Part shown: in pieces, positions 2,806 through 21,792 of the stretch
Layout: every line of letters starts with the position of its first letter
Numbering within the stretch: the stretch's first letter is position 1
Source: Kiritimatiellia bacterium
GTDB lineage: Bacteria; Verrucomicrobiota; Kiritimatiellia; CAIVKH01
Length of the DNA stretch: 64,000 bases
Assembly: GCA_027493775.1 (NCBI GenBank)
Contig: JAOSKE010000002.1
Coordinates: forward strand, 407,435-471,434
Reading direction: 5' to 3'
Notes under the pieces: generated by a model
Told to the model about the DNA's origin: nothing
What the model saw: only the letters and a program-made list of their open reading frames with translations
Databases searched by the model: none
Position numbers and translations under genes: made by a program

Positions 2806-3993
2806 CTATTGTTTGCTATAGGCCAGCACAAACCCGGCATAAAACGCGCACGCGCGGGTCAAATGCTCAATCTCGACACACTCATTCGGGGCGTGCGCCA
2901 TGTGTTCATGCCCGGGCCCGAACCCAATGGTCGGAATGTTGTGCATCCCCGCGCTGGCGACGCCGTTTGTGCTGAAGACCCAGTGGCCGACAATCGGCTT
3001 CTCATCGAACACCGCCTGATACGCCTCGCGCGCCTTCTTCACTTCGAGCGTGGATTCCGGCATCTCCCAGGTTGGGAAATACTTCTTCGTCGGATAGGTC
3101 AACCCCGTGTAGCTCGGCGTTGCATAATCAAGCACGCGCACAACCGCCTTCGCCTTCTTCACCGAAGGCAGCGCCTTGATCTGATTCACGGCAATCTTTT
3201 CCGTTTCGCCCACGGTCAAGCGGCGATCCAAATGGATGGCGCATCCGTCCGCGACCGCGCACAAACTCGGCGAGCGCGAACGGATGTGACTGATCGTCAC
3301 GGTGCCCTTGCCCAACGGCTTTTTCGGCTTGAGGCGCGCGTTCAACTTTTCGATATCCGCAATAATCGGCGCCATCTTATAGATCGCGTTCACGCCGCGT
3401 TCGGGCGCGGAGCCGTGGCAGGAAATTCCCGTCGTCTCCACTTCGATTTCCATGCGGCCACGGTGCCCGCGATAAATGCGCAGACTCGTCGGCTCGGTGA
3501 TGACAACCACGTTGGGACGTAGTTTCTCTTCCTTCACCAAATACTGCCAGCACAGCCCGTCACAGTCCTCCTCCTGCACCGTCGCCGTGATAAAGAGCGA
3601 TACATTCTTCGGGAAGCCCATCTTCTTCAAAAGCGCGCCCGCGTAAATTGCCGATGCCACACCGCCCTTCATGTCGCTTGTGCCGCGTCCATACAAACAT
3701 CCATTTTTTACAATCGGCTTGAACGGGTCGGTTTTCCATGCCTTGAGGTCGCCCACATCCACGGTGTCAATGTGCCCGTCAATAGCGATTTGAACCGGCC
3801 CCTTCCCGATTCGCCCGATGACGTTCCCCATCTTGTCCACGCGCACGGAATCGTAGCCGAGCTTCTTCATTTCATCTGCGATGCGGCGCGCAACGCGCCC
3901 CTCCTCGCTACTCAGCGATTTGATTGAGATGATGTCCTTCATGAATTTCAGAAGGCGCGATTCCATTGCCCGACTTGCTGCCAGTATGCTCAT
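2806..3993 (-). CDS. ygeY: YgeY-family M20 peptidase/hydrolase (selenium-metabolism-linked hydrolase family)
   Basis: 395 aa with M20 metallopeptidase motifs (GHIDTV, GRGTSDMKGG, ITEPT). Lies 5 nt downstream of the TrpB-like gene on the same strand. Confidence 0.8.
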   Translation of the reverse strand: MSILAASRAMESRLLKFMKDIISIKSLSSEEGRVARRIADEMKKLGYDSVRVDKMGNVIGRIGKGPVQIAIDGHIDTVDVGDLKAWKTDPFKPIVKNGCLYGRGTSDMKGGVASAIYAGALLKKMGFPKNVSLFITATVQEEDCDGLCWQYLVKEEKLRPNVVVITEPTSLRIYRGHRGRMEIEVETTGISCHGSAPERGVNAIYKMAPIIADIEKLNARLKPKKPLGKGTVTISHIRSRSPSLCAVADGCAIHLDRRLTVGETEKIAVNQIKALPSVKKAKAVVRVLDYATPSYTGLTYPTKKYFPTWEMPESTLEVKKAREAYQAVFDEKPIVGHWVFSTNGVASAGMHNIPTIGFGPGHEHMAHAPNECVEIEHLTRACAFYAGFVLAYSKQ

Positions 3994-3998
3994 GACCT

Positions 3999-5487
3999 TT
4001 ACTCCATGTTTTTCAGTACGCCTGTTGCCTCATTGAATTCCGTGATCCGCCGATCCCATTCGGCGATCCGTTCCTCCGCAAAAATGTCCCGCCAGAACGA
4101 CTCGTCCCACAGCCTCCGCAAGTCTTCCACGTCCCGGCCCTGCTGTTCGACCCAGGTGAAGTATTTGAACTGATGCAACGCCTTCCGTTCCTGATAATTC
4201 AGCTCGCGGAAAAGAGATGTTGTGTGTCCATCGAGATAGGTCGCCGCCACGGAGATCGCATCGCGAGCGCTGAACCGGCCACGCGCCTCCGTCATTTCTT
4301 CGAGGCGCGATCCGTAAAGCTCCATCGAATCCGTAAGCGGAATAAACAGAACGTCATTGCGGTCCATCTCGTAATATTCGGCGGTCTTTACCGCTGCGAC
4401 CAAATTGCAGATTCCGGAAATGCCTGCGAGATCGAGCGATTCAATCGTTGCTTCTGGCACTCCGCTTGCCGCGAGCAAATTTTTTCCCTCTATCTCGTTA
4501 AACAACCGCATGAGCTGCATGACCGCCTCGTCATCCACCGCGGCCACCGCATCGGTATTGCGGACGTTGTGAACCCACGGAACATGCTTGTCCCCGATTC
4601 CCTCGATTCGGTGTGCGCCGAATCCAAACTGGTACAGCGTCGGACACTGTAACGCCTCCGCCGCAACGACACGCAGCTGTGGATATTTTGTCCGCAAATA
4701 ATCGCCCGCCGCAATGGTGCCCGCCGATCCCGTTGCGCTGATAAATCCCGCAAGCCGCGAAGAAGGCCCACGGATCTGATTTTCGTACACCTCGCTGATC
4801 AGCGAACCGGTGACGTGATAATGCCACATCGCGTTTCCAAACTCTTCTGAACTGATTGAAAATCACGATGTCATCGCCGCGCGTGCGGCGTAGCTCCCAG
4901 CACTTGTCGTAAATCTCTTTTACGTTCGACTCCGTGCCCGGCGTCGCAATGATCTCGTCCGTCCCGATCTCGCGCAACCAGTTGAATCGCTCCTGACTCA
5001 TTCCCTCCGGCAGAATCGCAATGGCGGGACAGCCCAGCAGCGCACAGTCGTACGCGCCGCCCCGACAATAGTTGCCGGTGGATGGCCACACGGCCTTTTG
5101 CCGGGTCGGATCGAACTGCCCCGAGACCAGACGCGGCACGAGACATCCATAGGCTGCGCCCACTTTATGGGCGCCCGTCGGAAACCACTTTCCGACAATG
5201 CCCACGATTCGAGCGTCCACCCCCGTCAGCGCCGAGGGAAACTCAATCCAGTTCCCTTCTCCGAATCCGCCTCCGCGCGGCTTCGGCTCGTTCTTCCATG
5301 TGATGCGAAACAAATTCAGCGGATTCACATCCCACAATCCGATGGAGGAAAGTTTTGTCTTAATCGCGGCGGGGATTTGGGAAGGATCCATTTGCTGCGC
5401 GATGGTCGGCAAAATTACATGCCGCTCTCGCGCACGACCAATCGCCCGTTGCAATACGCTCTCTTCCGCCATCAATCCCGTAGTCAT
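3999..5487 (-). CDS. TrpB-like PLP-dependent enzyme (tryptophan synthase beta superfamily); frameshifted near 4848
   Basis: N-terminal ORF 4531-5487 has the PLP-lysine motif FPTGAHKVG and ends ...DIVIFNQF. C-terminal ORF 3999-4829 continues in another frame (EEFGNAMWHYHVTGSL...). A 1-nt indel at about 4848 restores one ~495-aa protein. Confidence 0.75.
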
Positions 5488-5653
5488 CGAACACCCCGCT
5501 GGTTCTTTCCGCTAAAGCGTCGCGCCGACTTCGTCATCAAACAACGGAATAACAGCCTCCGGCGCCCTGATTAGCCCATCGGTAAAACCCTGATCCCTCA
5601 AAAGAGGTTCTTCCCCGATTGCGATTCACAAGGAATTACGCAACCATTCCAAC

Positions 5654-5887
5654 ATGGAAATCAGGTTGGAATATGTCGCAATGCTGAAGACCAACGCGCC
5701 GCCGAGCGGGAGCGTAATGACCGTTCAAGAGGGCATCACGATTGCAGCGCTCTTGGAACAAATCGGAATCCCTGAAAAGCAACGCGGCGTGATCACGCCG
5801 TTTGTGAACACAGCAAAAGTCAGTCAGAACCACGCGCTCCAAAACGACGACCGTGTCTTCCTCGCAATGCCGATCGGTGGCGGGTAA
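5654..5887 (+). CDS. MoaD/ThiS-family ubiquitin-like sulfur-carrier protein
   Basis: 77-aa ORF ending ...AMPIGGG-stop (C-terminal Gly-Gly typical of MoaD/ThiS). Convergent with the xanthine dehydrogenase-like gene, divergent from the TrpB-like/ygeY operon. Confidence 0.7.
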   Translation: MEIRLEYVAMLKTNAPPSGSVMTVQEGITIAALLEQIGIPEKQRGVITPFVNTAKVSQNHALQNDDRVFLAMPIGGG

Positions 5888-6005: not shown

Positions 6006-8330
6006 GTTATCCGCCCTCGCGTTCTTGAATCGCTTTCCAAATGGCATTCGGCATGAACGGAGAGCTGCGCATACGAACGCCCACGGCATTGTAGATGGCG
6101 TTGGCGATGCAGGGGAGCGGGCCGTTGATGCAAATTTCGGAAACGCTCTTTGCGCCGTACGGGCCACTCTTTTTCGTAGCTGGGGACCAGAATGGTCTTC
6201 AGCGCCGGCTTGTCCCGCATGGACATGATCTTGTAGTGCGCGAAGGATGGATTGAGCATCCGCCCGCGTGAACTGAAGCGATACTGCTCCGTCAACGCAT
6301 AGCTGATTCCGTTCAACACGCCGCCCTCGGTCTGGCCCTCGGCCAGCTTCGGGTTCACTGCCGTGCCGCAATCCACCGCTGCGACATAGCGCAGGACGCG
6401 CACCCTGCCGGTCAACGTGTCCACCTCCACTTCGCAGAAATGTGCGGAGAAAGGCGGCGGCGACTTGTGCGTGATATGCGAGGAAATCGCGCCAATTTGG
6501 AACTGGTCCGACCCATAGAGCGAGCGCAGCGCGATTTCCGGAGAACGTGACGGATTTTCCATCCGGCCCAAACGCGCAGTTGTCGCGCAGATCGATTTCC
6601 TTGGGTTTGCATTCCATCATCGCGGCGCCAACACCAGCGATTTGTTTGGCAACTTTTTCGGCGACGTTCTTCACCGCCATTCCGCTGAGATACGTCGTGC
6701 TGGAGGCATACGCGCCAACATCGAACGGGGTTGTGTCCGTGTCCGACGAATAGACGATGAGCTTGTCCACATCGCAGCCGACTGTTTCTGCAGCGATTTG
6801 CGCAAGAATGGTATCGCTCCCCGTCCCGATGTCCGTCGCGCCGACCAGCAAATTGAATGACCCGTCGTCATTCATCTTCATCGTTGCCGCGCCCATATCA
6901 ATTTCGGGGATGCTGGATCCCTGCATCAGCGACGCCATTCCGATGCCGCGACGGAAGCGCCCTTTTTTGTCCTGCCAGCGCCCGCGCTTTTTCCAACCGA
7001 TCTCGCGTGCGCCGAGCTTCATGCACTTCTCCATTTCGCAACTGCCGATGGACTGTTCGACGCCCGCCTTTCCTTCTCCCAGCGCCCGGAAAACCGGCGA
7101 TGTTTCACCCGAGCGAATCGTGTTCATCCGGCGGAACTCCAGCGGGTCCATGCCGAGCATCTCCGCCAGCTCATCCATCATGCAATCAATGCCGAACGTG
7201 GATTGCGTCGCGCCATACCCGCGATACGCTCCGCCGACCGGCAGGTTGGTGTATGCGGATTCGCCGACAAAGTGGATGGTTTTGCTGCGGTACAGCGGAA
7301 GAATTTTGCTGCCGCTATTGCACACCACCGTCAGCGCGTGCGCACCGTACGCCCCCGAGTTTGTGCAGCAATCCAACGCAAGCGCACTGATTGATCCATC
7401 CTTTTTCACGCCGGCACGAATACGCATTTTCTCGGGATGTCGCGTCCGGCTGGAAACAAACTCTTCCTCGCGCGTGTATTTCCAATGCACGGCCCGACCG
7501 GTACGCAACGCGAACATGGCAACCACCGGCTCCAGCAGCACCTCCTGCTTTCCTCCGAAGCCGCCTCCGATGCGGGGTTTCACAACGCGAATCCTGCGCA
7601 CCGGGATCTGAAGCACCTGCGCAACGATGCGGCGGACATGGAACGGCACCTGTGTGCTCGTTGTGACAATCACGCGACCATCTACATCAAGATGCGCGGT
7701 CACGATATGCGGTTCAATCGGACAGTGATGCGCATAGTCCGTGTAAAACTCCCGATCAAGCATCGTGTCCGCCGCCTTCAATTCGGCCTCGACATCCCCC
7801 ACGTCCATTGCGACCCGCGCGGCGAGATTCCGCTGCGGTTCGTATGGAACCGGAATCGGGACATGCGCCTCCGGCTCGTCGTGGATCACAGGCGCACCGG
7901 GCTTGAGCGCGTCATCAATCGTGAATACGGCGGGCAGTTCCTCGTACACCACCTTGATCGCCTTCACTGCTGCGGCAGCCTGTTCCGGCGTATCCGCGGC
8001 AACTGCGGCGACGCGATCACCAACGAAGCGCACTTTATTGTCAAACAGGAAGGAATCGTATGGCGAGGGCTCGGGAAAACCCTGTCCCGCAGTCGTGTGA
8101 ACCACACGCGGAACATTGCCGTGATGCAGGATGCAATGCACCCCCGGCATCTTCTCCGCCTCGCTTACATCAATGGATACAATCCGCGCGTGCGCATGGG
8201 GACTCCACAGCGCCTTCACATACAAGGAGTCGGCGGGCTTCAAATCCGCGACAAACATCGGCTTGCCGGTGGCAAGCGAGAGGGAGTCAATTTTCCGGAC
8301 GGACTTTGCGACAACATTAAATTTCTTCAT
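6006..8330 (-). CDS. xanthine dehydrogenase family molybdopterin-binding subunit (XdhD-like); two frameshifts (~6540 and ~6166)
   Basis: N-terminal 600 aa read in the frame of ORF 5973-8330 up to ...GPDGKSVTFS. The middle (FCEVEVDTLTGRVRVL...GQTEGG...ILVPSYEKE) is in the frame of ORF 5891-6571. The true C-terminus GPYGAKSVSEICINGPLPCIANAIYNAVGVRMRSSPF...EREGG-stop at 6006 is in the third frame. Confidence 0.8.
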
Positions 8331-8790: not shown

Positions 8791-9631
8791 TTACCTTCCT
8801 CCCGCCATCCCGCACGCCTCTAAAATCGCATCGGGCAAATGTGCGCGCGCCAGTTGTTTGATGTACTCACTGCTGTATCCGCGATCCCCTTTCCAGGAAA
8901 CACCGGCCAGATGCGCTTCCACGGCGGCGGCGATGTCCGCCTCTGCGCATTTTTTTCCCGACAAGCTCCGCCTCCAATGCCGAGAGTCGGCAAGGCAGCG
9001 GGACGCCCGCTCCAACCGCGACCCGTGCATCCCGAATCGTCCGGCCTTCGCGGCGAATCCATGCCGCAATGGTGAGGTGGCTGAAGTCCATATTAACAAG
9101 GCTCTCCTTGTGATAGCCAAAGCCGGACCCCTCTCCGATTTCCGGAACGGATATTTCAGTGAGCAGGTCGCCCGGCTGAAATAGACGACTCGGTTGACCA
9201 TCGAAAAAGACCGACGCCAGATGCGAGGTTTTTGCCTCGCCCGAAATGGTCATCGTTGCGTTCAGCGCAAGCAGCGCGACAGGAAAATCATTCCACGGAA
9301 AAACGCGGCTGATGTTTCCGCCGATGGTCGTCATATTTCGTAGCGGCTGACTCACAAAGCGAAGCGCGACGCGATCCAGCACCCAGCCCGGAGCGTGAAA
9401 CGCCTGCAAATCCGCAATTCGCGTATTTGCGCCGACCACAAAATGTCCATTTTTGCACTCAACACCTTCGAATCCGATATCGGCAATGTCCACACCGATT
9501 TTTTCGTCATCATTCTTAACAAATGAATGCGACGACGCGCCCGCAAGCGGCATCGCCGTCGGGCCAAGCTCCTTCAACAGTCGGCGCGCATCCGCCAGTG
9601 ATTTCGCGCGGTGATAGGCAGTCAGTTTCAT
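8791..9631 (-). CDS. FAD-binding subunit of xanthine dehydrogenase-family enzyme (YgfM-like); frameshifted in A7/T7 run 8950-8956
   Basis: ORF 8867-9631 (MKLTAYHRAKS...LPCRLSALEAELVGKK) plus the C-terminus in another frame (AEADIAAAVEAHLAGVSWKGDRGYSSEYIKQLA, part of ORF 8791-9201). The junction is at the T7 run. Confidence 0.75.
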
Positions 9632-11004
9632 ATTTGACCTCCAGCTTTCTTCAACATCATATCCGTCAACTCGTTCGCCCTATGAAAGAGACGCTGCTCA
9701 TCCGTGCCGATCAACTCGCCGCCGGCCACGCGAATGACGCCATTAACGATCGTATAATCCGCGCGCGCACCCGCGCCGCAGAACAGGATGGCGGACGCGG
9801 GATCCGTCATCGCGCCCGCGTATTCAATCCGATCCAGTCGAAACAAGGCGATATCCGCAAGCGCCCCCGGCGCAATACGTCCAATCTCCGGCCATCCGAA
9901 CACCTCTGCGCCCCCGCGCGTCGCCATGTGCAGCACACGACTCGACGGCATCGCGTCAACCGCCGTTCCAACGCGATGCGCCAGCAGCGCCATTTGCATT
10001 TCGCGGCTGAAACTGGAACTATCATTGCTGGCGGAGCCGTCCACTCCGAGCGCAACGCGAACACCCGCCTCCATCATGCGCGGAATCGGCGCAATTCCCG
10101 ACCCCAGCCGCAGATTGGACGACGGACAGTGCGCGATTCCGGTTTTCGTCGCCGCGAGTTTCTGTATTTCACCGTCATTAAAATAGATGCCGTGCGCAAA
10201 CCAGACATCGGGACCCAGCCACTCGTTCTCCTCCATGTATTCGATCGGTCGCTGTCCGAACATCTCGCGGCAGTAATTCTCCTCATCCACGGTCTCGCAC
10301 AAATGCGTGTGACAGATGACGCGATGTGCACGGGCAAAGCGGATTGTCTCCCGTAACAACTCCGTCGTAACCGAAAACGGCGAACACGGCGCGAGGGCCA
10401 GTCGACACATCGAATCCGGCTCGGGGTTGTGGTATTTTGCGATCAACCGGTCACAATCCGCGATGATTTCCTCGTGATGCTGCACCACGTCATCGGGCGG
10501 AAGTCCGCCATGTGATTTGCCCCGGCTCATGCTGCCGCGTGTGGGATGGAAGCGAATGCCCATCGCGCGCGCGGTTTCAATTTCCACATCCACCAATTCC
10601 CGCGTCACACCACGCGGGAAAACGTAAAAGTGATCCGAGGTGGTTGTGCAGCCGGACAACAACAGCTCGCCGATCCCGACACGCGCGCTGATATCCACCG
10701 CCTCCGGCGTAAGCCAGCGCCAGATTTCGTAAAGATTTGTCAGCCAGTCGAACAGTTTCGCGTTTTGAACGGCCGGAATGTTGCGCGTCAGTGTCTGATA
10801 AAGATGGTGGTGCGTATTGATGAAACCGGGGTAGAGCACATGGTTGCTCGCATCAATCACCGACGCGCCGGGTGGCGCGTCGAGCGACGGCTTAATCGCG
10901 GCGATTCGATTGCCCTCCACAAGCACATCCACGTCATGCACAGGCTGCTCGCCATCCACCATGCTGACGAGGGTCTGCACCCGTTTTAGAAGGATGGCAC
11001 TCAA
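9628..11004 (-). CDS. amidohydrolase-family deaminase (8-oxoguanine/guanine deaminase-like)
   Basis: Metal-binding motif GFINTHHHLYQT and typical amidohydrolase C-terminal half. Start is ambiguous: TTG at 11004 (after GGGGGAG) or GTG at 11019; the ORF track ATG at 11112 overlaps the upstream gene. Confidence 0.75.
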   Translation of the reverse strand: MSAILLKRVQTLVSMVDGEQPVHDVDVLVEGNRIAAIKPSLDAPPGASVIDASNHVLYPGFINTHHHLYQTLTRNIPAVQNAKLFDWLTNLYEIWRWLTPEAVDISARVGIGELLLSGCTTTSDHFYVFPRGVTRELVDVEIETARAMGIRFHPTRGSMSRGKSHGGLPPDDVVQHHEEIIADCDRLIAKYHNPEPDSMCRLALAPCSPFSVTTELLRETIRFARAHRVICHTHLCETVDEENYCREMFGQRPIEYMEENEWLGPDVWFAHGIYFNDGEIQKLAATKTGIAHCPSSNLRLGSGIAPIPRMMEAGVRVALGVDGSASNDSSSFSREMQMALLAHRVGTAVDAMPSSRVLHMATRGGAEVFGWPEIGRIAPGALADIALFRLDRIEYAGAMTDPASAILFCGAGARADYTIVNGVIRVAGGELIGTDEQRLFHRANELTDMMLKKAGGQI

Positions 11005-12316
11005 TGGATTCTCCCCCACAACGCACGCGCGCGCTCGTTTGCCTTTCTTCGTATTCCGGCTTCGTCGAGATGCGAAATGACGCCGTTTTCCAGCAACACG
11101 CGACCACGGCAAATCGTTGTCGTCACCGGCGCGGCGACTAGGCCGAACAAGAGGTGACCGTAAAATGTGGAGGAGTTGAAGGGGGTGAACGGGCGATAAT
11201 CAAAGATTGCGATGTCCGCCAGACACCCCGGCGCAAGACGTCCGCGCGGCTCCGGGAAAATACGGTCGCAAATCGCGCGGTTATTTTCCAACAACAGCCG
11301 ACACGCCTCAACAAATGCCACGCGCGGGTCGCGACGGATTGCGCGTTGCGCGAGATACGCCGCGCGCGCCTGTGCGATCAATTGGTTGGACATGCCATCC
11401 GTTCCTAGACCAAGCAGGATCCCATCGCGCAGAATTTCGAGCAACGGCGTCATCCTAAGTCCGTTGTTCATATTCGACTCGGGATTCGTCGCCATCATGC
11501 TGTCCGATTCGGCGAGCATCTTCCGGCCGCGCTCGTCCAGATGAATTCCGTGCGCGAAGATGGATTTCGGCCCGACAATGCCCGCGCGCTGGAAGCGATC
11601 AATCGGGAGCGCGCCAAATTCGCGCAGCGACGCTTCTCCATCGCACTCCGCCTCATCAATATGCACATGAAAGCCCGTGTCCAGCGCCTGGCCTTCCGCC
11701 GCACAGCGCTCCAGCGTGTCGGGGCTGAGTGTCATGGATGCGTGCAGGCCGAACAGCGGTTGTATCTGAGGGTTCTTCGCCGTCCGGCATTTCTTAATGA
11801 ACCGGATATTCTCCGCGACCCCTCCCCCTTCTTGTTGCGGTCTGACACTTCGTAGCAAAGGCAGCCATTCAATCCGGCCTCACGGAACGCGCGCTCGACT
11901 ATGTCAAGGCTTCCATCCGCGCAGGCGGGCGAGGCATGATGATCAATAATCGTTGTGCATCCGGCATGAATCGCCTCCACGCAGGGAAGAATGGACGAGT
12001 AATAGACATCCTCCGCGTCCAACGCGGCGTCGAGTTTCCACCAGAGCCGTTCGAGTATTTCCTGAAAGTTTTTCGCCGGCTCGCCCGGCGGCGAGAAGCC
12101 GCGCGCCAGGGTTGAATACAGGTGATGATGCGCATTAATCAGGCCGGGCATGACAATGCGGCCTTCCGCATCAATCGTGCGATCCACTCTTTCCGTCGCC
12201 ACACGACCGACGGCGAGAATTTTCGTGTCTTCCACGAGAATGGAGCCGTTTTCAATGATGGCCCCCGCGTCATCGAGCGTCACCAATGTTCCGTTTTGTA
12301 TTAATATGCGGCTCAT
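11001..12316 (-). CDS. ssnA: SsnA-like amidohydrolase; frameshifted in C-run 11819-11828
   Basis: N-terminal ORF 11732-12316 (MSRILIQNGTLVTLDD...GLINAHHHLYSTLARG) and C-terminal ORF 11001-11858 are in different frames; the junction ...EVSDRNKKGEG/VAENIRFIKKC lies in a C4/C5 run. Confidence 0.75.
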
Positions 12317-12317
12317 T

Positions 12318-15300
12318 TTATGAATTCTCCATCAGGGGTATAAACGGAACCGATCCGCGCAGACCATTTAGCAACGCCATCATCTCCACCACCGGGCGCA
12401 GCGAAACGCGCTCGCAATCCGGCGCATTGGGCTTGGCGGTGATGGAAAGCAACTCCCAGCCCACGGACCAAACGGCATCCAGTTCAGGGCTCGAATAATC
12501 AATCCGGCCATTCAGCGACAGGGTGTGCGTTCGACCCGCGATACGCGAGTGAATGGCCGCGCCATCAGCCAATCGCTCCAAGAGAAACGCATTGTTCGAC
12601 TCGCGCTCCCATTCATCGCGCCGCGAGTAGATGCGCGGCTTGTCTTTGTACGGTTTCCCAGCGGAAGGGCAAAACGTGACGCAGTTTCCGCACTCGTTGC
12701 ACAGATCGGCAAACACCGCAACCTGGTAGCGCTGCGTGATTTTGATCGTTTCTCCGTCGAGCGCGAACCAGCGGCTATCCTTAATCCGACCCAACGGCAG
12801 TGTCTTGCAGATCGGCGCGTGCTCGTAGGTGAACAATGCAAGGTTGGGGCATACGCCGACGCAGTAGCTGCACAACAGGTCGCAATCGAGACAGCGCGAC
12901 GCCTCCTCCTTTGCGATCCGTTGACTCAACGTGTTGACAACCTCGTCGAAATCGCGGCGATCTTTCGGCGCCCGCTCCGGCGCCTTCACGGCAAATTTCC
13001 GGGTCACTCTGCGACGCTGAAATTCCGCGCGATTCACAAACAACGCGGACTCCTTTTGCCCGTCCGCAGCGCGCCCCTCAAACTTCGCGCGAATCGCGCG
13101 CGCGATTCTCTTGCCGTCGCCCAACGCCTTCACAATCGTCGCCGGCCCGCTGCCGACCGCGTCGCCGCCCGCATACACGCCCGGTGCGCTGGTTTCCAAG
13201 GTCACTGAATCAACCTGCACGTAGCCGTTCTTGTTCAGCGCGACCCCCGCCTTTTGCAGCCACTCGAAATCACCGGCCTGACTGATTGCGACAATCAGCG
13301 TGTCCATCCCGAACGTTTCCGTTTCATCGCCTTTGGGCGATGGACGACGACGCCCGCTTGCATCCGGCTCGCCCAGCTCCATAACGCGACAAACCAAGCC
13401 GGTGAGATGGCCGTTTTCAGTGAGAATTTTTGCGGCGCACGCAATTCACGAATCGGAATGCCCTCCTCCAATACGCCCCGCAATTCATCGCGCTGTGCGG
13501 GCATTTCTTTGAGGGTGCGGCGATAAATAATGTTCACGCTCTCCGCGCCAAGCCGCCATGCGGCGCGTGCGCAGTCCATCGCGACATCGCCGCCGCCAAT
13601 GACCCCGACGCGGCGTCCGATTTTGGGACGACGCCCTTCGCGCGACTCGCGGAGAAATGAAAGCGAATCCCAAACACCCGGCGCATCCTCATCTTCCAGA
13701 CCAAGCCGCCCCGCGCGCTGCGCGCCGATGGCGACAAGGACTGCCGCGTATCCTTCGCGCTGCAAATCCGACAACTGGAAATCAACACCAGCTCGCTGCT
13801 TGTGCCGGACTTCGACGCCGCGTTGCTGCAAGAACGCCAGATCGCGCTGCAACGCGTCGTCGGATGAGCGATAGCCGGGAATTGAGGAGGCAACCATTCC
13901 CCCCTTGCGATCACTCGCATCGAAGATCGTCACGGGATAACCGGCGCGCGAGAGAAAATCCGCCGCGCCCAAGCCGCATGGCCCCGCCCCAACAATTGCG
14001 ATCCGCTCTCTCTTCTTCGGCTCGACAGCCGTTTGACTCTGCGCGTAGTCAACGATGAATCGCTTGATCTCGCGTATCGCGAGCGGCTCGTCCAAGTGCG
14101 AGCGAACACAGCGCATTTGGCAGGGATGGTGACACGCGCGGCCCAAAACAGACGGCATGGTGTTGTCGCGGCACACAATCGCGACGGCCTCATCCAAGCG
14201 GCTTCCTGCGACCGCGCGCATATACTCCGGCACACCCTGCTCAATCGGACACACCTCAACGCAGGGCGCTTTGATGCAGTCGAAAAGACCAAGCGGCCGG
14301 AGCGACTTTGTATCGGTTCGATCAAACGTCTCCTCACGATACAATCTGCTATCCAACACCTCCGCCGCGTAGCGCCTCAAATTGGCCTGCGCCGCCACAA
14401 TTCGATGATCGTTCCCTGCGGTCTTGCGGACAAATTCATCCGGCGAGTGCGCCTGCGCGGACTTCATCGCCGCCGCGAGATGCTGAACGTACTGCGCGAG
14501 TCGGCCATAGCCGCCGGAGCGGAGCAAATCCGAACAGACGGTGACGGTCCTCATGCCGCACTGCATCAACGACGCGATATTGAAGGCGTCCGCGCCGCCC
14601 GCAAATGAGACATCCACTTCGCCGCCGAACGCCTCTTGCAGGCGGAGCGCGGCGTGAACCGTCACAGCATGCAGCGGGCGGCCGGACATGTACATCTGCT
14701 TTTCTTTGGCGTCAAACGTCCGGCGGTGATTGATGACTTCCAGCGTATTCGACAGCTTCACTCCGAAGGACAAGCCCTGCGCCGCAGCGACGGCGCGGAG
14801 TTCACGGATCAGTTCCACGGCGTTATCAAAAGTGATGTCGTGCTCGAACGCCGCGTCCGGAACCGTGATGTCGTCGAAGCCGAGCTGATCATTCAAAATT
14901 GCGCGCAGCCGTTCCGGGCCAAGTAGCGTGGGGTTCAACTTGACGTAGGTGTGAAGCCGCTTCTTTTCGAGCAAATAGCGGCTGATTGCGCCGATTTCGC
15001 CAGGCGGACAACCGTGCATGGTCGAGAGGGTGACATTGTTGGAAACTCGACTGGGAACAGGCACGTCACCGATGTCGGGAAATATCCTGGAGAGTGTTTC
15101 TTTTCCCTTTTGGACCAAATCAGAGGCGTTCTCCATCGCGTCGAAGAAGCCCTGCACGTTCGGCTTGAGGATTCCCTCCATGTTGTAGCCGACGCTCATG
15201 TTGAAGACGGCGCCCGGCTGGTCGCCTTCCAACCCCAATACGCGATGCAGATAATGCGTCAGCAGCCAAGCGTTCACGTATTCCTGAATAGACTCGCGCA

Positions 15301-15649
15301 CGCGCAACTCTTGCGACCACTCCACATTGTAACCCGCGTCCTCCATATCAATGCACGGTTTACTGACCTCCAGCTCGTCCAGCGTTTGGATCGTCTTCAG
15401 TTCGATGAACCGTGCGCCGCACAGCCAGGCCGCAACGATGTTCTGCGCCATTTGCGTATGCGGCCCCGCAGCGACACCGATGGGCGTGAACAGCGTCTGT
15501 CCGAAAACGGAGGTGCGGAACGGGTCGGAAGCGCGCGGCTCGTAAAACAACTCACGATGGATTCCAAAAATGGATTGATTCGCCGCCATCTCATCGCGCA
15601 CCCATCCCGCAAGACGGCCCAACGATAGAGGAAACATTCGATCACTCAT
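12318..15649 (-). CDS. ygfK: YgfK-like putative selenate reductase subunit (FAD/NAD-binding plus Fe-S domains); frameshifted at T5 run 13427-13431
   Basis: ORF 13295-15715 carries Cys clusters and GXGXXG motifs (IAIVGAGPCGLGAA, VGVIGGGDVAMD). The C-terminal 360 aa (ORF 12318-13397, LVCRVMELGEPDASGRRRP...) is in another frame. Start taken at MSDRMFPL (15649), immediately after the sdaA stop. Confidence 0.75.
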
Positions 15650-16917
15650 GAAACACTCCCTTCCGTCGCCGCGACGACCGGCGCGGCTTGCGTTGACGCG
15701 GCTCGTTTGCGCCACACTGCGGCAAGGCCGCCGCGCGCGGTTTCCCGATAGGCGCTTTGCAGATCAAGCCCGGTGCGGTACATCACCTCGACCACATCAT
15801 CGAAACTCACGCGGTGCCGCCCATCCGTCAGCAGCGAAAACGATGCGCACTCAAACGCGCGAAGGCAGGCGGCCATGTTCCGCTCGATGCAGGGAATTTG
15901 CACGTAGCCTTCCACCGGGTCACAGGTCAATCCGAGGTGGTGCTCCATTCCGATTTCAGCGGCGTATTCAATTTGATGCGGCGAGCCGCCAAGCAGTTGT
16001 GAACACGCCGCAGCGGCCATGGAGCAGGCGGAACCGATTTCGCCCTGGCACCCCACTTCAGCGCCGGACACGGAGGCGTTTGCGCGGATGACTGACCCGA
16101 ACAAACCCGCAGTCGCCAATGCGCCCAGGATTTCCTGAAGAGGCGTCTTTTTAACCGTCGCAAAATAGTACAGCAACCCCGCGACCACTCCGGCGGGGCC
16201 GCAGGTCGGCGCGGTGACAATCGTTCCGGCGCTTGCGTTTTCTTCCGCGACCGCCAGGGCAAAGGAGGACAGAAACGCGAGATCGCGCCGCGTGCCCTGC
16301 AGGGATTGCGCCCGCTCCCAGGTGGTTCCTGCCTGGCGCGAGAGGTTCAGCGAACCGGGCAGAAGCTTGTCCGTGCTCTTCAACCCGCGCTCAACACTGT
16401 CGCGCATAGCGGCCCAAATCGGGATCAGCCTGTTCCATACATCCGGCTCATGCAGTTCGACGAATTGCCGGAACGAGCTGTTGTTTTTTTCGCACCAGTC
16501 GAGCGCGTCCGCGAGATTGGAAATGGGATAGGTGACGACCTCTCCCGTATTGACCGGCCCGCTGTCGTCGCGCAACGAACCGCCACCAATGCTGTACACG
16601 CGCCATTCATCTGAAATAAATCCCAGCGCATTGATCGCTTGCCAGATCATCGTGTTCGGGTGAACCGGAGTTGGCGACACGGCGTCCCACACGATTTCGC
16701 AAGCGATCGGATATAGCGCGGCGATAATCGTTCTATCCGTCAGATGTCCGCGTCCCGTCTCCGCAAGACTGCCCTGCAGGGTCACGCGCACGCAGGCGGG
16801 AGGGGTTGTCTGGCGGTCGAGAAGTATGCGCGCGGCACGCTGCGGCCCAATGCTGTGCGAGCTGGATGGACCCGCGCCAACTTTGAACGTCTCAAAAATG
16901 GATTCCACGACCGGCAT
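15646..16917 (-). CDS. sdaA: L-serine dehydratase, iron-sulfur-dependent, single chain
   Basis: Motifs FKVGAGPSSSHSIGP, YSIGGG, ANASVSGAEVGCQGEIGSACSMAAA and GMEHHLGLTCDPV...VQIPCIERN match the L-serine dehydratase family. First gene of the seven-gene minus-strand operon. Confidence 0.8.
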   Translation of the reverse strand: MPVVESIFETFKVGAGPSSSHSIGPQRAARILLDRQTTPPACVRVTLQGSLAETGRGHLTDRTIIAALYPIACEIVWDAVSPTPVHPNTMIWQAINALGFISDEWRVYSIGGGSLRDDSGPVNTGEVVTYPISNLADALDWCEKNNSSFRQFVELHEPDVWNRLIPIWAAMRDSVERGLKSTDKLLPGSLNLSRQAGTTWERAQSLQGTRRDLAFLSSFALAVAEENASAGTIVTAPTCGPAGVVAGLLYYFATVKKTPLQEILGALATAGLFGSVIRANASVSGAEVGCQGEIGSACSMAAAACSQLLGGSPHQIEYAAEIGMEHHLGLTCDPVEGYVQIPCIERNMAACLRAFECASFSLLTDGRHRVSFDDVVEVMYRTGLDLQSAYRETARGGLAAVWRKRAASTQAAPVVAATEGSVS

Positions 16918-16996
16918 GGCGACTTTCCGATTTTGCTTCCACCAATCAGTCTAGGTTTTCGTTGCGCGATGGACAGCGTTATGTCGCCCAGCAACG

Positions 16997-17014
16997 CCTG
17001 ATGCTCGCATCAGG
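16997..17014. promoter_or_regulatory. perfect 18-bp palindrome in the divergent sdaA/ygeW promoter region
   Basis: CCTGATGC-TC-GCATCAGG with 8-bp arms, in the 178-bp intergenic region between the two divergent island operons. Confidence 0.4.
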
Positions 17015-17095
17015 GGAACCCTGATTGAAGCAAAACGGACAACGCTGAATACTTCGCGCAGTGGTTTGGAACGTGTTGTGTGACCGTCCGAAAAA

Positions 17096-18319
17096 ATGCG
17101 TGACTACTGGTCGCGCGGAAAGGGACAAGTGAATACGCTGAATTCAATTATCGCCGACTTGCGCAAACGCCCCGCATCTCTTCACGGAAAAGATTTTCTC
17201 CTAACGTGGGATCGCTCGCTCGATGAATTAAAGTTGATCCTCGGCCTTGCCGAAGCCCTGCGATTGATGCGCAAGCAGGGAATCTCAACGCGAGTGTTTG
17301 ACTCGGGTCTGGCGGTCTCGAATTTTCGCGACAACTCAACACGCACGCGCTTCTCGTTTGCCTCCGCCTCAAATCTTCTCGGGCTTTCCGTTCAGGACCT
17401 CGACGAAGGAAAATCACAAATCGCGCACGGCGAAACCGTCCGCGAAACGGCGACCATGATTTCCTTCCTCACGGAAACCATCGGCATTCGCGACGACATG
17501 TTTCTCGGCGCGGGTCACACCTACATGCTGGAGGTGGCGGAGGCGCTCGATGAAAGTTTCCGCGAGGGTGTATTGCCGCAACGTCCGGGCATTGTGAATT
17601 TGCAGTGCGATGTGGATCATCCGACGCAGTCCATGGCGGATTTGCTCTGGCTCGAAAAGCAATTTGGATCGCTCGACAACCTGCGCGGAAAAAAGATCGC
17701 GATGACGTGGGCGTATTCGCCGAGCTATGGAAAGCCGCTGTCGGTCCCGCAGGGCATCATCGGTTTGATGAGCCGCTTCGGGATGAATGTGGCGCTCGCG
17801 CATCCAAAGGGATACGACCTGATTCCTGAAGTCGTCGAGCGATCGGCGCGGCAGGCGAAAGAGTCTGGCGGCTCGTTCACCCACACGCATTCAATGGAGG
17901 AGGCGTTCGAGGGCGCGGACATTGTCTATCCGAAATCCTGGGCGTCTTATTCCGTCATGGAAAAGCGCACCGGGCTGTTGCGGAACAACGATCACGCCGG
18001 GCTGAAGGAATTGGAAAAGGCGTGCCTAGCGGAAAACGCTGCGCATACGAATTGGGAATGCTCGCCGGACAAGATGAAGCGCACAAAAGATGGCGACGCT
18101 CTTTATATGCACTGCCTGCCGGCGGACATCACGGGCGTTTCCTGCAAACAGGGCGAAGTGGCGGCCGACGTGTTCGAGAAATATCGCCTGCGCACGTATC
18201 ACGAAGCGGGCGGAAAGCCGTTCATCATCGCAGCCATGATTCTGGCCAACCGCTTTGCCGACCCCGTCGGCATGCTGGAGGAATTGCTCAAAAAGAACAA
18301 ATCGCGCGTCGGCGCGTAA
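17096..18319 (+). CDS. ygeW: YgeW-type knotted carbamoyltransferase
   Basis: 407 aa with the carbamoyltransferase signature NSTRTR and HPTQ; length and overall pattern fit YgeW rather than OTC or ATCase. Confidence 0.8.
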   Translation: MRDYWSRGKGQVNTLNSIIADLRKRPASLHGKDFLLTWDRSLDELKLILGLAEALRLMRKQGISTRVFDSGLAVSNFRDNSTRTRFSFASASNLLGLSVQDLDEGKSQIAHGETVRETATMISFLTETIGIRDDMFLGAGHTYMLEVAEALDESFREGVLPQRPGIVNLQCDVDHPTQSMADLLWLEKQFGSLDNLRGKKIAMTWAYSPSYGKPLSVPQGIIGLMSRFGMNVALAHPKGYDLIPEVVERSARQAKESGGSFTHTHSMEEAFEGADIVYPKSWASYSVMEKRTGLLRNNDHAGLKELEKACLAENAAHTNWECSPDKMKRTKDGDALYMHCLPADITGVSCKQGEVAADVFEKYRLRTYHEAGGKPFIIAAMILANRFADPVGMLEELLKKNKSRVGA

Positions 18320-18326
18320 GGAGAGT

Positions 18327-19286
18327 ATGACAGCGTCCGCAAAGCGGAAGAAGCTCGCGATTATCGCGATCGGCGGCAACTCGCTGATCAGCGACAGCCG
18401 CAGCATGTCGGTTCCGGATCAATACCGGGCCGCAGGCGAGACAAGCCGCCATATTTCCGCGCTTGTTAAGCTGGGCTACCGGGTGGTGGTCACCCACGGC
18501 AACGGGCCGCAGGTCGGCTTCATCCTTTTGCGCTCCGAGCTTGCCAAGGACAAACTGCACTCGGTCCCGCTCGAAAGTTGCGTCGCGGACACACAGGGCG
18601 CGATCGGTTATCAAATTCAGCAAACGCTCAAGAACGAGTTGCACCGACTGGGAATCGTACAGCCCGTCGGAACGCTGGTTACCCAGTGCGTCGTCAGCGC
18701 AAATGACCCGGCCTTCAAAAATCCGACCAAACCCATCGGCCCCTTCTATACGGAAGAGGAAGCGCGTGCCCATGAGGTGAAGGACGGCTGGACGGTGCGC
18801 GAAGACGCCGGGCGCGGGTGGCGTCGTGTGGTGCCCTCCCCCGTCCCGCGCGAGATCGTGGAGGAACCCATTATCAAGGTGTTGCTGGAACGGGATGTCA
18901 TTGTCGTCGCCGTCGGCGGCGGCGGCATCCCGGTGACACGCACAAGGAGCGGACGCCTCAAGGGTTGCGCGGCGGTGATTGACAAGGATGCCGCATCAAG
19001 CCTGCTTGCGCAAAATTTGAAGGCGGATGTTTTGATCATCTCAACCGCGGTCAATCACGTCTATGTGAACTTCGGAAAACCGGATCAGCGGCCGATTTAT
19101 TACATGTCTCTCAAGGAAGCGGAAGGTCACGTCAAAGATGGACAATTCTCCGCGGGAAGCATGTTGCCCAAAATCGAGGCGGCGATCCGCTATCTAAAAG
19201 CCGGAGGAAAGAAGGTCATCATCACACAACCGCACCTCATCGAGAGTTCGGTTGTTGGAAAGGGAGGAACACACATCACGCCATGA
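18327..19286 (+). CDS. arcC: carbamate kinase
   Basis: MTASAKRKKLAIIAIGGN...VVTHGNGPQVG...; ATG 18327 preceded by AAGGAGAG. The stop overlaps the next start (ATGA). Confidence 0.85.
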   Translation: MTASAKRKKLAIIAIGGNSLISDSRSMSVPDQYRAAGETSRHISALVKLGYRVVVTHGNGPQVGFILLRSELAKDKLHSVPLESCVADTQGAIGYQIQQTLKNELHRLGIVQPVGTLVTQCVVSANDPAFKNPTKPIGPFYTEEEARAHEVKDGWTVREDAGRGWRRVVPSPVPREIVEEPIIKVLLERDVIVVAVGGGGIPVTRTRSGRLKGCAAVIDKDAASSLLAQNLKADVLIISTAVNHVYVNFGKPDQRPIYYMSLKEAEGHVKDGQFSAGSMLPKIEAAIRYLKAGGKKVIITQPHLIESSVVGKGGTHITP

Positions 19287-20536
19287 ATACGACATCCACA
19301 TCTCACGTCAGCGGTTTCCGCTGCCTTCGTTGCGGCGCCGAGCAGCCGAAATCATTCGACGGAATGCTCTGCCCCCTCTGTGAATACAATCTCGACGTTG
19401 AATACAACTACGCCGCGATTGATCCGCACAACTGGATGAATGAGCGCGACGATTTGTTCCGCTACTCCGCGCTGCTGCCCGTCAGCAACTTGGGCCTGAC
19501 GCCGGTTCAGCGCGTCGGACAAACTCCGCTCTATCACGCCGCACGCGCAGGAAAAGCACGCGGCCTGAGTCAGCTTTATGTCAAAGACGACGGCATGAAC
19601 CCCAGCGCATCGTTCAAAGACCGCGCGGGCGCGGTGGCGCTGGTCGTCGCGCGCGAGCGCAACGCGAGCGTGATTGCCGCATCCACCACGGGCAATGCGG
19701 GCAGCTCCATGGCGGCCTTGACCGCAGGCGTAGGATTTCCGTGCGTCATTTTCGTCCCCGCGACCGCGCCCGCCGCCAAGATCGCGCAGCTTCTCGTCTT
19801 CGGTGCAAAAGTAATCGCGGTGCAGGGCACCTACGACCAGGCGTACGACCTTTGCGAAACGGCGTGCGAGGAGATGGGCTGGTTCAATCGCAATACGGGC
19901 TTCAACCCCTTCACACGCGAGGGAAAAAAAACCTGCTCGTTTGAAATCTGGGAGCAGTTGGGCGGACAGGCGCCGGATCACCTGTTGGTAGGATCGGGCG
20001 ATGGAAACATCATCAGCGGAATTTGGAAGGGCTTCCGCGACCTGCTCGCGCTCGGCCTGATCAAGAAAATGCCCGCGCTCTACAGTTGCCAATCCGAAAA
20101 AAGCGCGGCCATTGCCACCGCCGTTCGCGCCGTTCAAGACCGCTCCGCAGTGGACTGGAAGGCGCTGAAACTGCCGACGGTGAAATCGGAAACCCTTGCG
20201 GACTCCATTTCGGTGGACTACCCAAGCGACGGCATTGCAGCCATGCGCGCGATGTTTGAAACCGGCGGCGACGCAATTACGGTTTCCGAAGATGAAATTC
20301 TACGCGCCATCCCCGACCTTGCCCAATCCACCGGCGTCTTCGCCGAACCCGCCGCCACCGCCTGCTGGGCGGCATTGGACAAACTCTTAACAATGAAGAC
20401 CATCGCCCACGACGAAAAGGTCGTTTGCGTCATCACGGGCAACGGCCTGAAAGATGTCGCCAGCGCCAGAAAAACCGTGGGCCAGCCGATCACCGTGGAG
20501 CCGACGATAGAGGCCGTGATGGCGGCGATTACCTAG
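19283..20536 (+). CDS. threonine synthase-family PLP-dependent enzyme with N-terminal zinc ribbon
   Basis: N-terminal CxxC...CxxC (CLRCGAEQ...CPLCEY) and the PLP-lysine motif SFKDRAG typical of threonine synthase-like enzymes. Confidence 0.75.
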   Translation: MNTTSTSHVSGFRCLRCGAEQPKSFDGMLCPLCEYNLDVEYNYAAIDPHNWMNERDDLFRYSALLPVSNLGLTPVQRVGQTPLYHAARAGKARGLSQLYVKDDGMNPSASFKDRAGAVALVVARERNASVIAASTTGNAGSSMAALTAGVGFPCVIFVPATAPAAKIAQLLVFGAKVIAVQGTYDQAYDLCETACEEMGWFNRNTGFNPFTREGKKTCSFEIWEQLGGQAPDHLLVGSGDGNIISGIWKGFRDLLALGLIKKMPALYSCQSEKSAAIATAVRAVQDRSAVDWKALKLPTVKSETLADSISVDYPSDGIAAMRAMFETGGDAITVSEDEILRAIPDLAQSTGVFAEPAATACWAALDKLLTMKTIAHDEKVVCVITGNGLKDVASARKTVGQPITVEPTIEAVMAAIT

Positions 20537-20699
20537 CCAGCGCCCGACTCACAATCAAATTTTGCCGCAAGGCAAAACGACACCTGCGACAGACAGCTCG
20601 CCGGGACGCTTGCGGATAAACTCGCTTCGCACGCGCGATTAATAAGGCGCACGGCGCAAAGATATGCTTCACTCCGCGCCATCACTTAGGAGTTACCGA

Positions 20700-21743
20700 A
20701 TGAAATTGCTTCGCGTCCTGGCCGCCGGCAGCTTGTTATTGCCGGGTATTGCTTCCGCTGAATTCATCACCGGCGGACGACCACTCAATTCCAATAAGAC
20801 ATTTTCAGTCCACGCAACAGTCGGACAGGTCAGCGAAATCAGCGGCGGGGTGACGGAAACAACACGGCGACTTTTTGAACTCGAGGGCCGCAACCCCTCC
20901 ACCTTTGAGCCTGAAAGCTATACCTTCAAAGATCTCGGCATCAAGGACAGCGACATCACCTTCGGCCTCTCGCTGGAGAGGAATTGGAAATATTTCACCT
21001 TTCGCGGCGGCCTCTCCTATATGAGCGCGGATGCCAACGGCGCCCCGCCACGCGACTTCTTCATCGGCGTGAGCGACATTGACTTCAACGGGAAATCCTA
21101 CGAATACATGAAGCTGGAGAAAAATATCCCCTACACCGCTTCGATTGACTCCGCAATTATTGACGCGCGTTTGCAATGGACGCCGGTGACCTTCGGCGAG
21201 GACTACACCATTTCCTTCACCCCTCATGCACACCTCGGTTTCTTTGCGCTCGCGGGCACATTTGAAGTGGATCAAGGCGATCCGAAACGCATCCAGATTT
21301 ATGAAGACCCGCCACGCGAATATGTCGTCGGCGGGCACGGTGAAGGCACGGTGGCCGGGTTTGCGCCGGAAATAGGATTGGGCGGCGAAGTTCGCTTTTG
21401 GCTCGGACGCGACCGCCACGGAGATCGCGAGCTGGCGATACAGGGAACCTATGCCATTTTTCAATACAACGGATCATCCGACGCGCTCGGCGTCAGCTCG
21501 CGCAACGCAAAAGACCTCGATGTGGATTACAACATGATGGAGCTTCGCGCATCGCTGTATCTACCGATGAGCGACAAGATAGATCTGGTACTCGGCGCGG
21601 AATACAAGGCCATCAGCACCGACGCGGAGAGCAAGAGCAAGGCACGGACACTGAAAGAAGCGCAAAAGAACCGTGAGAAGTTCGACAAGGACATTGATCT
21701 CGACCTGACCATCATCAATGTCTTCGCGGGCATTCGATTCTAA
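20700..21743 (+). CDS. putative outer-membrane beta-barrel protein
   Basis: Signal peptide MKLLRVLAAGSLLLPGIASA, alternating hydrophobic pattern, C-terminal ...FAGIRF ending in Phe. Confidence 0.55.
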   Translation: MKLLRVLAAGSLLLPGIASAEFITGGRPLNSNKTFSVHATVGQVSEISGGVTETTRRLFELEGRNPSTFEPESYTFKDLGIKDSDITFGLSLERNWKYFTFRGGLSYMSADANGAPPRDFFIGVSDIDFNGKSYEYMKLEKNIPYTASIDSAIIDARLQWTPVTFGEDYTISFTPHAHLGFFALAGTFEVDQGDPKRIQIYEDPPREYVVGGHGEGTVAGFAPEIGLGGEVRFWLGRDRHGDRELAIQGTYAIFQYNGSSDALGVSSRNAKDLDVDYNMMELRASLYLPMSDKIDLVLGAEYKAISTDAESKSKARTLKEAQKNREKFDKDIDLDLTIINVFAGIRF

Positions 21744-21760: not shown

Positions 21761-21792
21761 AAAAAACAAGCCGGACGGGTTCGGCCCGTCCG
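21761..21792 (-). terminator. rho-independent terminator after the AsmA-like gene (bidirectional candidate)
   Basis: Minus strand reads GGACGGGCCGAACCCGTCC followed by GGCTTGTTTTTT, between the convergent outer-membrane and AsmA-like genes. Confidence 0.5.

Follow-up and report, generated by a model that had tools for sequence, protein, structure and literature searches.

A conserved array of three half-sites, probably a regulator-binding element, in both divergent control regions of a Kiritimatiellia purine-degradation island

Regulation of reductive uric-acid degradation

The genes of the reductive (2,8-dioxopurine) uric-acid pathway have been described recently (PMC12507026; bioRxiv 10.1101/2025.04.24.650524), and the pathway as a whole was worked out only in 2023-2025. 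Regulation of this "yanthine" pathway across bacteria is, in the words of the authors concerned, poorly understood (PMC12507026). Two systems offer the closest comparison. In Escherichia coli the divergent ygeV-ygeW control region, located upstream of ygeW, combines the sigma-54 activator YgeV with a CRP site (PMC12507026), while in Clostridiales a DioR sigma-54 regulon is predicted to control ygeW-ygfK-ssnA-ygeY (PMC6615313).

The locus considered here lies within a 64-kb stretch of DNA from a Kiritimatiellia bacterium, the whole of which was analysed and is referred to as the window. It resembles the YgeV and DioR systems in that its control regions serve the same pathway genes (ygeW, ygfK, ssnA, ygeY and xdh), and the E. 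coli system in having a divergent intergenic region upstream of ygeW. The design is nevertheless different. Neither intergenic region of the island contains a -24/-12 element (TGGCAC-N5-TTGC) at up to 2 mismatches, no Sigma54_activat domain was detected among the window ORFs scanned, and because the divergent partner of ygeW is an sdaA-like enzyme gene there is no adjacent enhancer-binding-protein gene of the YgeV kind. The nearest sigma-54 look-alike, TGGAACGTGTTGTGT, is not conserved in the related loci L001 or L081, and a candidate sigma-54 promoter at about 17068 (TGGAACG-N4-GTGT) was set aside for want of conservation. A perfect sigma-54 consensus, TGGCACTCCGCTTGC, does occur on the plus strand at 4455-4469, inside the ygeX coding region and on the strand opposite to it, and is probably a chance occurrence.

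The island and its control regions

The genes that frame the two control regions are as follows.

15646-16917, minus strand: sdaA-like gene for an L-serine ammonia-lyase, which heads the minus-strand operon
17129-20536, plus strand: ygeW (knotted carbamoyltransferase), arcC (carbamate kinase) and a gene for a thrC-like PLP enzyme
20664-21743, plus strand: gene for a 359-aa protein, probably an outer-membrane protein, the last gene of the ygeW operon
3999-5487, minus strand: gene for a ygeX-like PLP enzyme, with its start at 5487, frame-shifted in the window
2806-3993, minus strand: gene for a ygeY-like M20 peptidase
5654-5887, plus strand: ThiS/MoaD-like ORF of 77 aa that ends in GGG (PF02597 on orthologs)

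NCBIfam and Pfam bear out the gene context claimed in the preliminary description of this DNA, a divergent pair formed by an sdaA operon and a ygeW operon. The minus-strand operon starts with the sdaA-like gene and continues through ygfK, ssnA, a PRK08203-type amidohydrolase (deaminase) gene and the xdh genes down to 5973, the last encoding the FAD, 2Fe-2S and MoCo subunits of an enzyme of the xanthine dehydrogenase family. Alignment with orthologs places the start of ygeW at the GTG at 17129, not at the ATG at 17096, so that the sdaA/ygeW intergenic region spans 16918-17128. The second divergent region, between ygeX and the ThiS-like ORF, spans 5488-5653 (166 bp). This small ORF is divergent from ygeX and convergent with xdh, is conserved in the related loci L174 and L175, and may serve as a sulfur carrier tied to the molybdenum enzyme. 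A perfect 16-bp palindrome within it, CGGCGTGATCACGCCG at 5785-5800, is probably fortuitous.

By its annotation, the gene set of the island is that of the reductive uric-acid pathway. No gene named HyuA was found in the window; the PRK08203-type amidohydrolase (9628-11112) occupies the place in which a second ring-opening enzyme would be looked for. The closest genomes are Kiritimatiellia MAGs, with YgeW 87% identical to that of JBDHQM010000010, and the Kiritimatiellia versions of the cluster in L161, L164, L169 and L175 keep both the sdaA-like and the thrC-like gene. Both genes fall outside the E. coli and Clostridioides difficile gene lists of PMC12507026, the text of which mentions neither sdaA nor serine dehydratase.

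The 359-aa protein gene closes the ygeW operon also in L161. Its product has no match in Pfam, NCBIfam or PDB, but an N-terminal signal peptide and a C-terminal ...GIRF suggest an outer-membrane beta-barrel and not a regulator, and this could be a purine or urate porin. A GC-rich hairpin (inverted repeat 21772-21792) follows the gene.

An array of three half-sites

The starting point was a "perfect 18-bp palindrome" reported at 16997-17014. Read directly, these bases are CCTGATGCTCGCATCAGG. The two arms are exact reverse complements, but the 2-bp centre is TC and is not self-complementary, so the feature is an 8+2+8 inverted repeat with 16 of 18 positions symmetric and not a perfect 18-mer. 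The pattern is single-copy within the window at a tolerance of 3 mismatches. Its form is unexceptional: 33 of 100 shuffled windows gave at least one match at up to 3 mismatches, and inverted repeats with perfect arms of at least 8 bp and spacers of 0-6 nt number 15 in the 64-kb window, compared with 8.9 +/- 3.5 expected from first-order Markov simulations. The bare palindrome is thus not beyond chance, and judged on these counts its reality comes from its context and not from its bare pattern.

That context is a larger element, which ortholog alignment and a weight matrix delimit.

16997-17014, no strand: inverted repeat CCTGATGC-TC-GCATCAGG, 8-bp arms and 2-nt spacer
16996-17026, plus strand: three-half-site element, CCCTGATG-N4-CATCAGGG-N3-CCCYGATT
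16996-17003, direct: half-site 1, (g)CCTGATG
17008-17015, inverted: half-site 2, CATCAGGG
17019-17026, direct: half-site 3, CCCTGATT, overlooked in the preliminary description
17009-17025, no strand: half-sites 2 and 3 combined as an everted palindrome, ATCAGGG-GAA-CCCTGAT, read directly from the sequence

Spelled out, 16997-17026 reads CCTGATG-ctcg-CATCAGG-ggaa-CCCTGATT, with the half-sites oriented -> <- ->, and the reported palindrome forms the left two-thirds of the array. The two direct half-sites, 1 and 3, are offset by 23 bp. Half-site 2 is common to the reported palindrome and to the everted one, and the dyad centres of the 1/2 and 2/3 pairs lie 11.5 bp apart. The element has the same length in the window as in all orthologs, and across genomes the conserved core of the first pair is CCTGAT-N6-ATCAGG with its dyad centre at 17005.5.

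Conservation between divergent sdaA and ygeW genes

Orthologous regions were collected through one GTDB genome scan, one metagenome scan and look-ups of sdaA and xdh homologues, and duplicates were collapsed (L164 and L165 are identical to L081, and L170 to L169). Phylogenetic footprinting of these intergenic regions had been proposed as the check on the palindrome, absence from related genomes being the result that would speak against it. The element instead keeps its place in six other genomes (L161, L163, L175, L001, L081 and L169), whose sdaA-like proteins are 74-89% identical to that of the window. What is kept is the dyad core CCCTGAT-N6-ATCAGGG together with the third half-site, CCCYGATTGA. 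Among the seven sequences, the block 16996-17029 (34 columns, made up of the element and 3 further bp) has a mean pairwise identity of 0.77 and the other 180 intergenic columns one of 0.43, with a mean column identity of 52% over the alignment as a whole. The best sliding windows in the intergenic alignment all fall within the element.

Inside the element, the central 4-6 nt are different in almost all genomes (CTCG, CGCC, CTTC, ATTT, ACATTC) while the arms are fixed, as is usual where a dimer makes no contact with the spacer of its site. Half-sites also decay singly, with the others staying in register. In L169 the middle half-site has decayed (ATTCAGCA) and half-sites 1 and 3 hold the 23-bp register, and in L166 half-site 1 is degenerate and the everted 2/3 pair remains.

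The compared genomes are fairly close relatives, with the second site described below covered in three of them. In L082, L084 and L002-L008, more distantly related loci that share the gene pair, the motif is missing; turnover of the regulator would explain this absence, which also limits the depth of the footprint. Nor was the motif found at ygeW loci, of PVC bacteria and others, where the upstream gene is a different one. The locus L082, whose sdaA product is 63% identical, has the same divergent pair and a different perfect palindrome, CCGCCATGGCGG, upstream of sdaA. At about 2840-3000 on the reverse strand of that locus a copy of ACCATGGCG lies near CCGCCATGGCGG, replacing the CCCTGAT array. 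From its sequence, this looks like turnover of both operator and regulator at an otherwise conserved promoter.

A second copy in the other divergent region

The preliminary description also pointed to a CCCTGAT heptamer occurring twice, at 5565 and 5588, in the other divergent promoter of the island, and rated a heptamer alone as statistically weak. Both heptamers are present, in a window that holds 10 where 5.8 are expected, and the link between the two promoters is real, since they belong to a full composite site with the same internal spacing as the first.

5565-5595, plus strand: second copy of the element, CCCTGATT-agcc-CATCGG-taaaa-CCCTGATC, in the ygeX/ThiS-like intergenic region

As in the first copy the direct half-sites are offset by 23 bp; the dyad is centred on 5574.5. 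Five orthologous sites, to the exclusion of the window, were used to derive a weight matrix, which was run over both strands of the window (about 128,000 positions) and ranked the matches as follows, against a background of -59 +/- 13 bits.

16995-17030: rank 1, 43.5 bits, the reported site
Overlapping rank 1 on the opposite strand: rank 2, 15.0 bits, a self-overlap from the symmetry of the site
5564-5599: rank 3, 11.7 bits, the second divergent promoter and the best non-self match
Next best match: rank 4, -1.8 bits

The simpler patterns CYGAT-N6-ATCRG and CYGAT-N18-CYGAT each occur in the window at these two places only. Both L174 (7614-7649) and L175 (12658-12693) conserve the second site, which is again their top weight-matrix match outside the main site, and the best-conserved block of the ygeX/thiS regions in these loci is CCCTGATT-N4-CATCGG-N-AAA-CCC. 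These orthologs were reached through look-ups anchored on xdh; look-ups anchored on ygeX (P0122, P0140, P0141) returned loci from other lineages, without the motif. Over the 173 fetched loci (1.28 Mb), weight-matrix matches above 5 bits lie at these promoters, with the exception of a 5.9-bit match in L046. With two copies in the 64-kb window, both in promoters of the island, the element does not behave as a dispersed repeat of the REP or MITE-like kind.

Position relative to genes and candidate promoters

Dyad centre and start codon are separated by a near-constant 86.5-88.5 bp for sdaA in six genomes (those with a strict dyad) and for ygeX in three. In the window the sdaA start lies 88.5 bp and the ygeX start 87.5 bp from the respective dyad centre. 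The dyad is less tightly spaced from ygeW (119.5-123.5 bp) and thiS (75.5-79.5 bp). Duplication of an entire control region was considered as the source of the equal 87.5-bp distances and rejected, as the sequences that flank one site show no alignment with those of the other.

A scan of 16850-17200 with a sigma-70 consensus, which may not be that of the host, called no promoter, and the assignments below are therefore our own reading of conserved hexamers.

16948-16953, minus strand: putative sdaA -10-like hexamer TAGACT, 55 bp from the dyad centre
16971-16976, minus strand: putative weak sdaA -35-like hexamer CTGTCC, the 17-bp spacing being read from the sequence
17025-17053, plus strand: putative ygeW promoter, TTGAAG (17025-17030), 17 bp, AATACT (17048-17053)
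5516-5544, minus strand: putative ygeX promoter, -35-like TTGTTT (5539-5544) and -10-like GACGCT (5516-5521), 17 bp apart

These hexamers would fit sigma-70-like promoters. On the sdaA side the AGTCTAG block is largely conserved, its T, A and G being invariant in seven of seven sequences. On the ygeW side the -35-like TTGAAG overlaps the end of half-site 3, and the arrangement of TTGnnn, 17-18 bp and (G/A)ATAnT recurs in all seven orthologs; it matches 8 of 12 consensus positions, below the scan threshold of 9/12. The ygeX -10-like hexamer (GAnnCT) and the dyad centre of its control region are separated by 56 bp, in a mirror image of the sdaA side, and the corresponding sequences are TTGAAC...GATTCT in L174 and TTGCGT...GAAGCT in L175. 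If these promoters are right, the element would extend, for sdaA and ygeX, from about -55 to -85 and have its dyad near -65, and for ygeW from about -64 to -34, where it would touch the -35 hexamer.

A putative binding site for a coordinating regulator

Intergenic location at promoters, conservation above background and recurrence at functionally linked promoters are general marks of an operator, and the element carries all three. We consider it likely that the element is bound, as double-stranded DNA, by a sequence-specific transcription factor whose gene lies beyond the window and which coordinates the island. Three CCCYGAT(G/T) half-sites in alternating orientation and about 11.5 bp apart present a dyad at each adjacent pair, so that a dimer, a tetramer or a pair of dimers could occupy the array. 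One copy would serve each divergent control region, that between sdaA-ygfK-ssnA-xdh and ygeW-arcC-thrC-like and that between ygeX-ygeY and the thiS-like ORF, and with a copy in each a single regulator would switch all four transcription units together. The signal is presumed to be a purine or a pathway intermediate. Of the original proposal, an operator shared by both divergent operons, the binding site itself finds comparative support and extends to an array in both control regions.

We lean modestly towards an activating role, in a class I/II or LysR-like arrangement, over repression, as the dyad would lie near -65 for sdaA and ygeX and the third half-site abuts the putative ygeW -35. Both the -65 placement and this preference are soft, since the promoters are weak matches to a consensus that may itself not apply. 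The strict repressor case is one in which a ligand-released repressor, for example of the TetR, GntR or MarR type, blocks the ygeW -35 and by extension the divergent promoters. It is a sub-case of the binding-site explanation and not a true alternative to it, and we regard it as possible though on balance unlikely. Half-site 3 overlaps the first base of the putative ygeW -35. Catabolic clusters are often controlled by repressors, and MarR-type repressors that respond to urate, such as HucR and PecS, are known. On the sdaA and ygeX sides, however, about 40 bp separate the end of the element from the -10-like boxes downstream, and at about -55 to -85 from the putative start sites occlusion of RNA polymerase would not be expected; the poor -35-like hexamers on the sdaA side (CTGTCC) suggest dependence on an activator instead.

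No DNA-binding domain was detected by Pfam or NCBIfam in about 56 window ORFs (all those of at least 150 aa and ten small gap ORFs), and the genes that flank the cluster in related contigs include no regulator common to them, which places the predicted regulator elsewhere in the genome. The contig L166 carries a truncated LytTR-domain gene (1-343) about 5.6 kb from its partial copy of the motif. LytTR proteins bind direct repeats about 21-22 bp apart, compared with 23 bp between the direct half-sites here, and as no other motif-bearing contig has a LytTR gene nearby the association is probably coincidental. A literature search for the motif string returned primer sequences only, and one for Kiritimatiellota regulator motifs returned nothing relevant.

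The two overlapping dyads, inverted (1/2) and everted (2/3), share half-site 2, and two dimer-binding modes would therefore be mutually exclusive. This allows a speculative reading, to which we give a slim chance, in which the array acts as a toggle: an undescribed urate- or purine-sensing regulator of the PVC group would shift register on binding its ligand and so switch between the back-to-back promoters, as opposed to a plain activation of the two together. If true, both the mechanism and the regulator family would be unrelated to YgeV, DioR, CRP, PucR and HucR. The credible but ordinary reading is that of a new motif of a familiar type, a standard operator that leaves current views unchallenged.

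The element provides a testable cis-regulatory handle on this pathway in an uncultured Kiritimatiellia lineage. The 31-bp sequence could serve as bait for the regulator, and the motif as a means of defining the regulon across complete genomes and of spotting co-regulated accessory genes. The candidates for such genes outside the pathway as described in E. coli and C. difficile are the sdaA-like, thrC-like and ThiS-like genes and the outer-membrane protein gene.

Comparison with known binding sites

The comparisons that follow are with established consensus sequences and serve as leads. CRP recognizes TGTGA-N6-TCACA and FNR recognizes TTGAT-N4-ATCAA. The element shares with these a symmetric nTGA...TCAn dyad, CTGAT is one base from the TTGAT of FNR, and its position, upstream of the -35 or abutting it, is reminiscent of class I/II activation. 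The spacing fails to match, however, which sets the motif apart from the CRP site of E. coli: all genomes have CTGA-N8-TCAG where CRP and FNR sites have TGA-N6-TCA. The third half-site, one helical turn away, is likewise absent from CRP and FNR sites.

The ARG boxes of ArgR and AhrC are 18-bp sequences, wnTGAATwwwwATTCAnw, arranged in tandem pairs. Here the likeness extends to the length of 18 bp, to the TGA-N8-TCA geometry and to a set of regulated genes that includes a carbamoyltransferase and a carbamate kinase. The arms are nevertheless TGATG/CATCA in place of TGAAT/ATTCA, the spacer is variable and often GC-rich in contrast to the AT-rich centre of an ARG box, and there is one extra half-site where a second complete box would be expected 2-3 bp away. 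No match to the motif was found upstream of the OTCase-family genes of the window (56770-57708 and 57718-58809).

LysR-type regulators use a recognition site near -65 and an activation site near -35. The array is similar in combining a dyad with a weaker extra half-site over about 30 bp, in placing the dyad about 65 bp upstream of the putative sdaA and ygeX start sites, and in controlling a catabolic cluster from a divergent intergenic region. It differs in having no T-N11-A box (the dyad gives T-N12-A or T-N6-A), in the lack of a divergently transcribed LysR gene, and in the position of the extra half-site, which for sdaA and ygeX is distal to the dyad and not proximal.

Core promoter, hairpin or chance

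Outside the binding-site explanation, two readings deserve discussion. The first takes the conserved block as core-promoter sequence, the -35 or UP-like part of back-to-back promoters, possibly for an alternative sigma factor, with no dedicated regulator involved. Half-site 3 does continue directly into TTGA, a conserved sequence compatible with a -35 hexamer at 17-18 bp from a conserved (G/A)ATAnT, and three genomes have GGAAC, which is ECF-like. That sequence is not conserved, however (L001 and L081 have GGTATC, and L175 GGAAAG), and an ECF-type GGAAC -35 was rejected on this ground. A core-promoter element would also have to accommodate a distance from half-site to -10-like hexamer of 22 nt on one strand and about 55 nt on the other, as well as the recurrence of the array at the second promoter without the TTGA; the lack of a -24/-12 match in both intergenic regions weighs against a sigma-54 variant. 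We consider this reading improbable.

The second, which we rate a shade lower still, is a hairpin in RNA (or single-stranded DNA) of a 5' leader, in which half-site 2 would pair with either half-site 1 or half-site 3 in exclusive stem-loops, acting as an attenuator, a riboswitch-like switch or an mRNA-stabilising stem. The segment 16990-17035 folds on both strands with a 7-bp stem around the 2/3 pairing, which is the pairing that the minimum-free-energy fold selects, at -14.3 and -15.8 kcal/mol (z = -1.7 and -2.1). One arm is common to the 1/2 and 2/3 pairings, an overlap that five genomes conserve. Yet covariation is zero in both helices (1:2 and 2:3), and each substitution breaks a pair: pair 117/127 is A.C in five of seven genomes, and L169 has lost the middle arm. 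The second site folds no better than shuffled sequence (z = +0.3 on both strands) and is conserved all the same. No Rfam family matched at E <= 1, and neither stem is followed by a U-run. Transcription of the element is itself improbable, since the conserved -10-like boxes lie downstream of it on both sides. An apparent compensatory change in the inner arm (C:G in the window, A:T in L001) was discounted, as L161 and L163 have C..C and L175 has A..C, without covariation. An intrinsic terminator was also discarded, there being no T-run on either strand and both flanking genes pointing away from the element. The independent decay of half-sites, their kept register, the degenerate Y and the free spacer point to a protein-binding site and not to a hairpin.

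That the palindrome is a product of chance without function, as the 15 comparable repeats where about 9 are expected and the 33 matching shuffles might allow, is scarcely believable in view of its retention in six other genomes against a 43%-identical background (in regions that, at 52% mean column identity, are not near-identical recent transfers), its recurrence at a second promoter and its fixed distance to the start codons.

Frame changes and other features of the assembly

Relative to intact orthologs (YgfK 1110 aa, SsnA 438 aa, Xdh 774 aa, YgeX 495 aa), the island genes contain at least five frame changes.

4843-4847: frame change in ygeX
6161-6183 and 6538-6540: frame changes in xdh
11819-11837: frame change in ssnA
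13424-13430: frame change in ygfK

The Logan protein P0241, from the same species, is 100% identical over only 76% of the xdh ORF of the window. Together these observations make assembly indels a likelier cause than decay of the island. Genes for an alpha-amylase and for serine hydroxymethyltransferase (SHMT) also appear split (42-1668 and 48664-50344). In the second case, an ORF on the minus strand (49154-50344) joins an RpiB/LacAB ribose-5-phosphate isomerase domain to the N-terminal half of SHMT, and an overlapping minus-strand ORF (48664-49275) holds the C-terminal half; either a frame change interrupts an rpiB-glyA fusion, or an indel has joined two genes.
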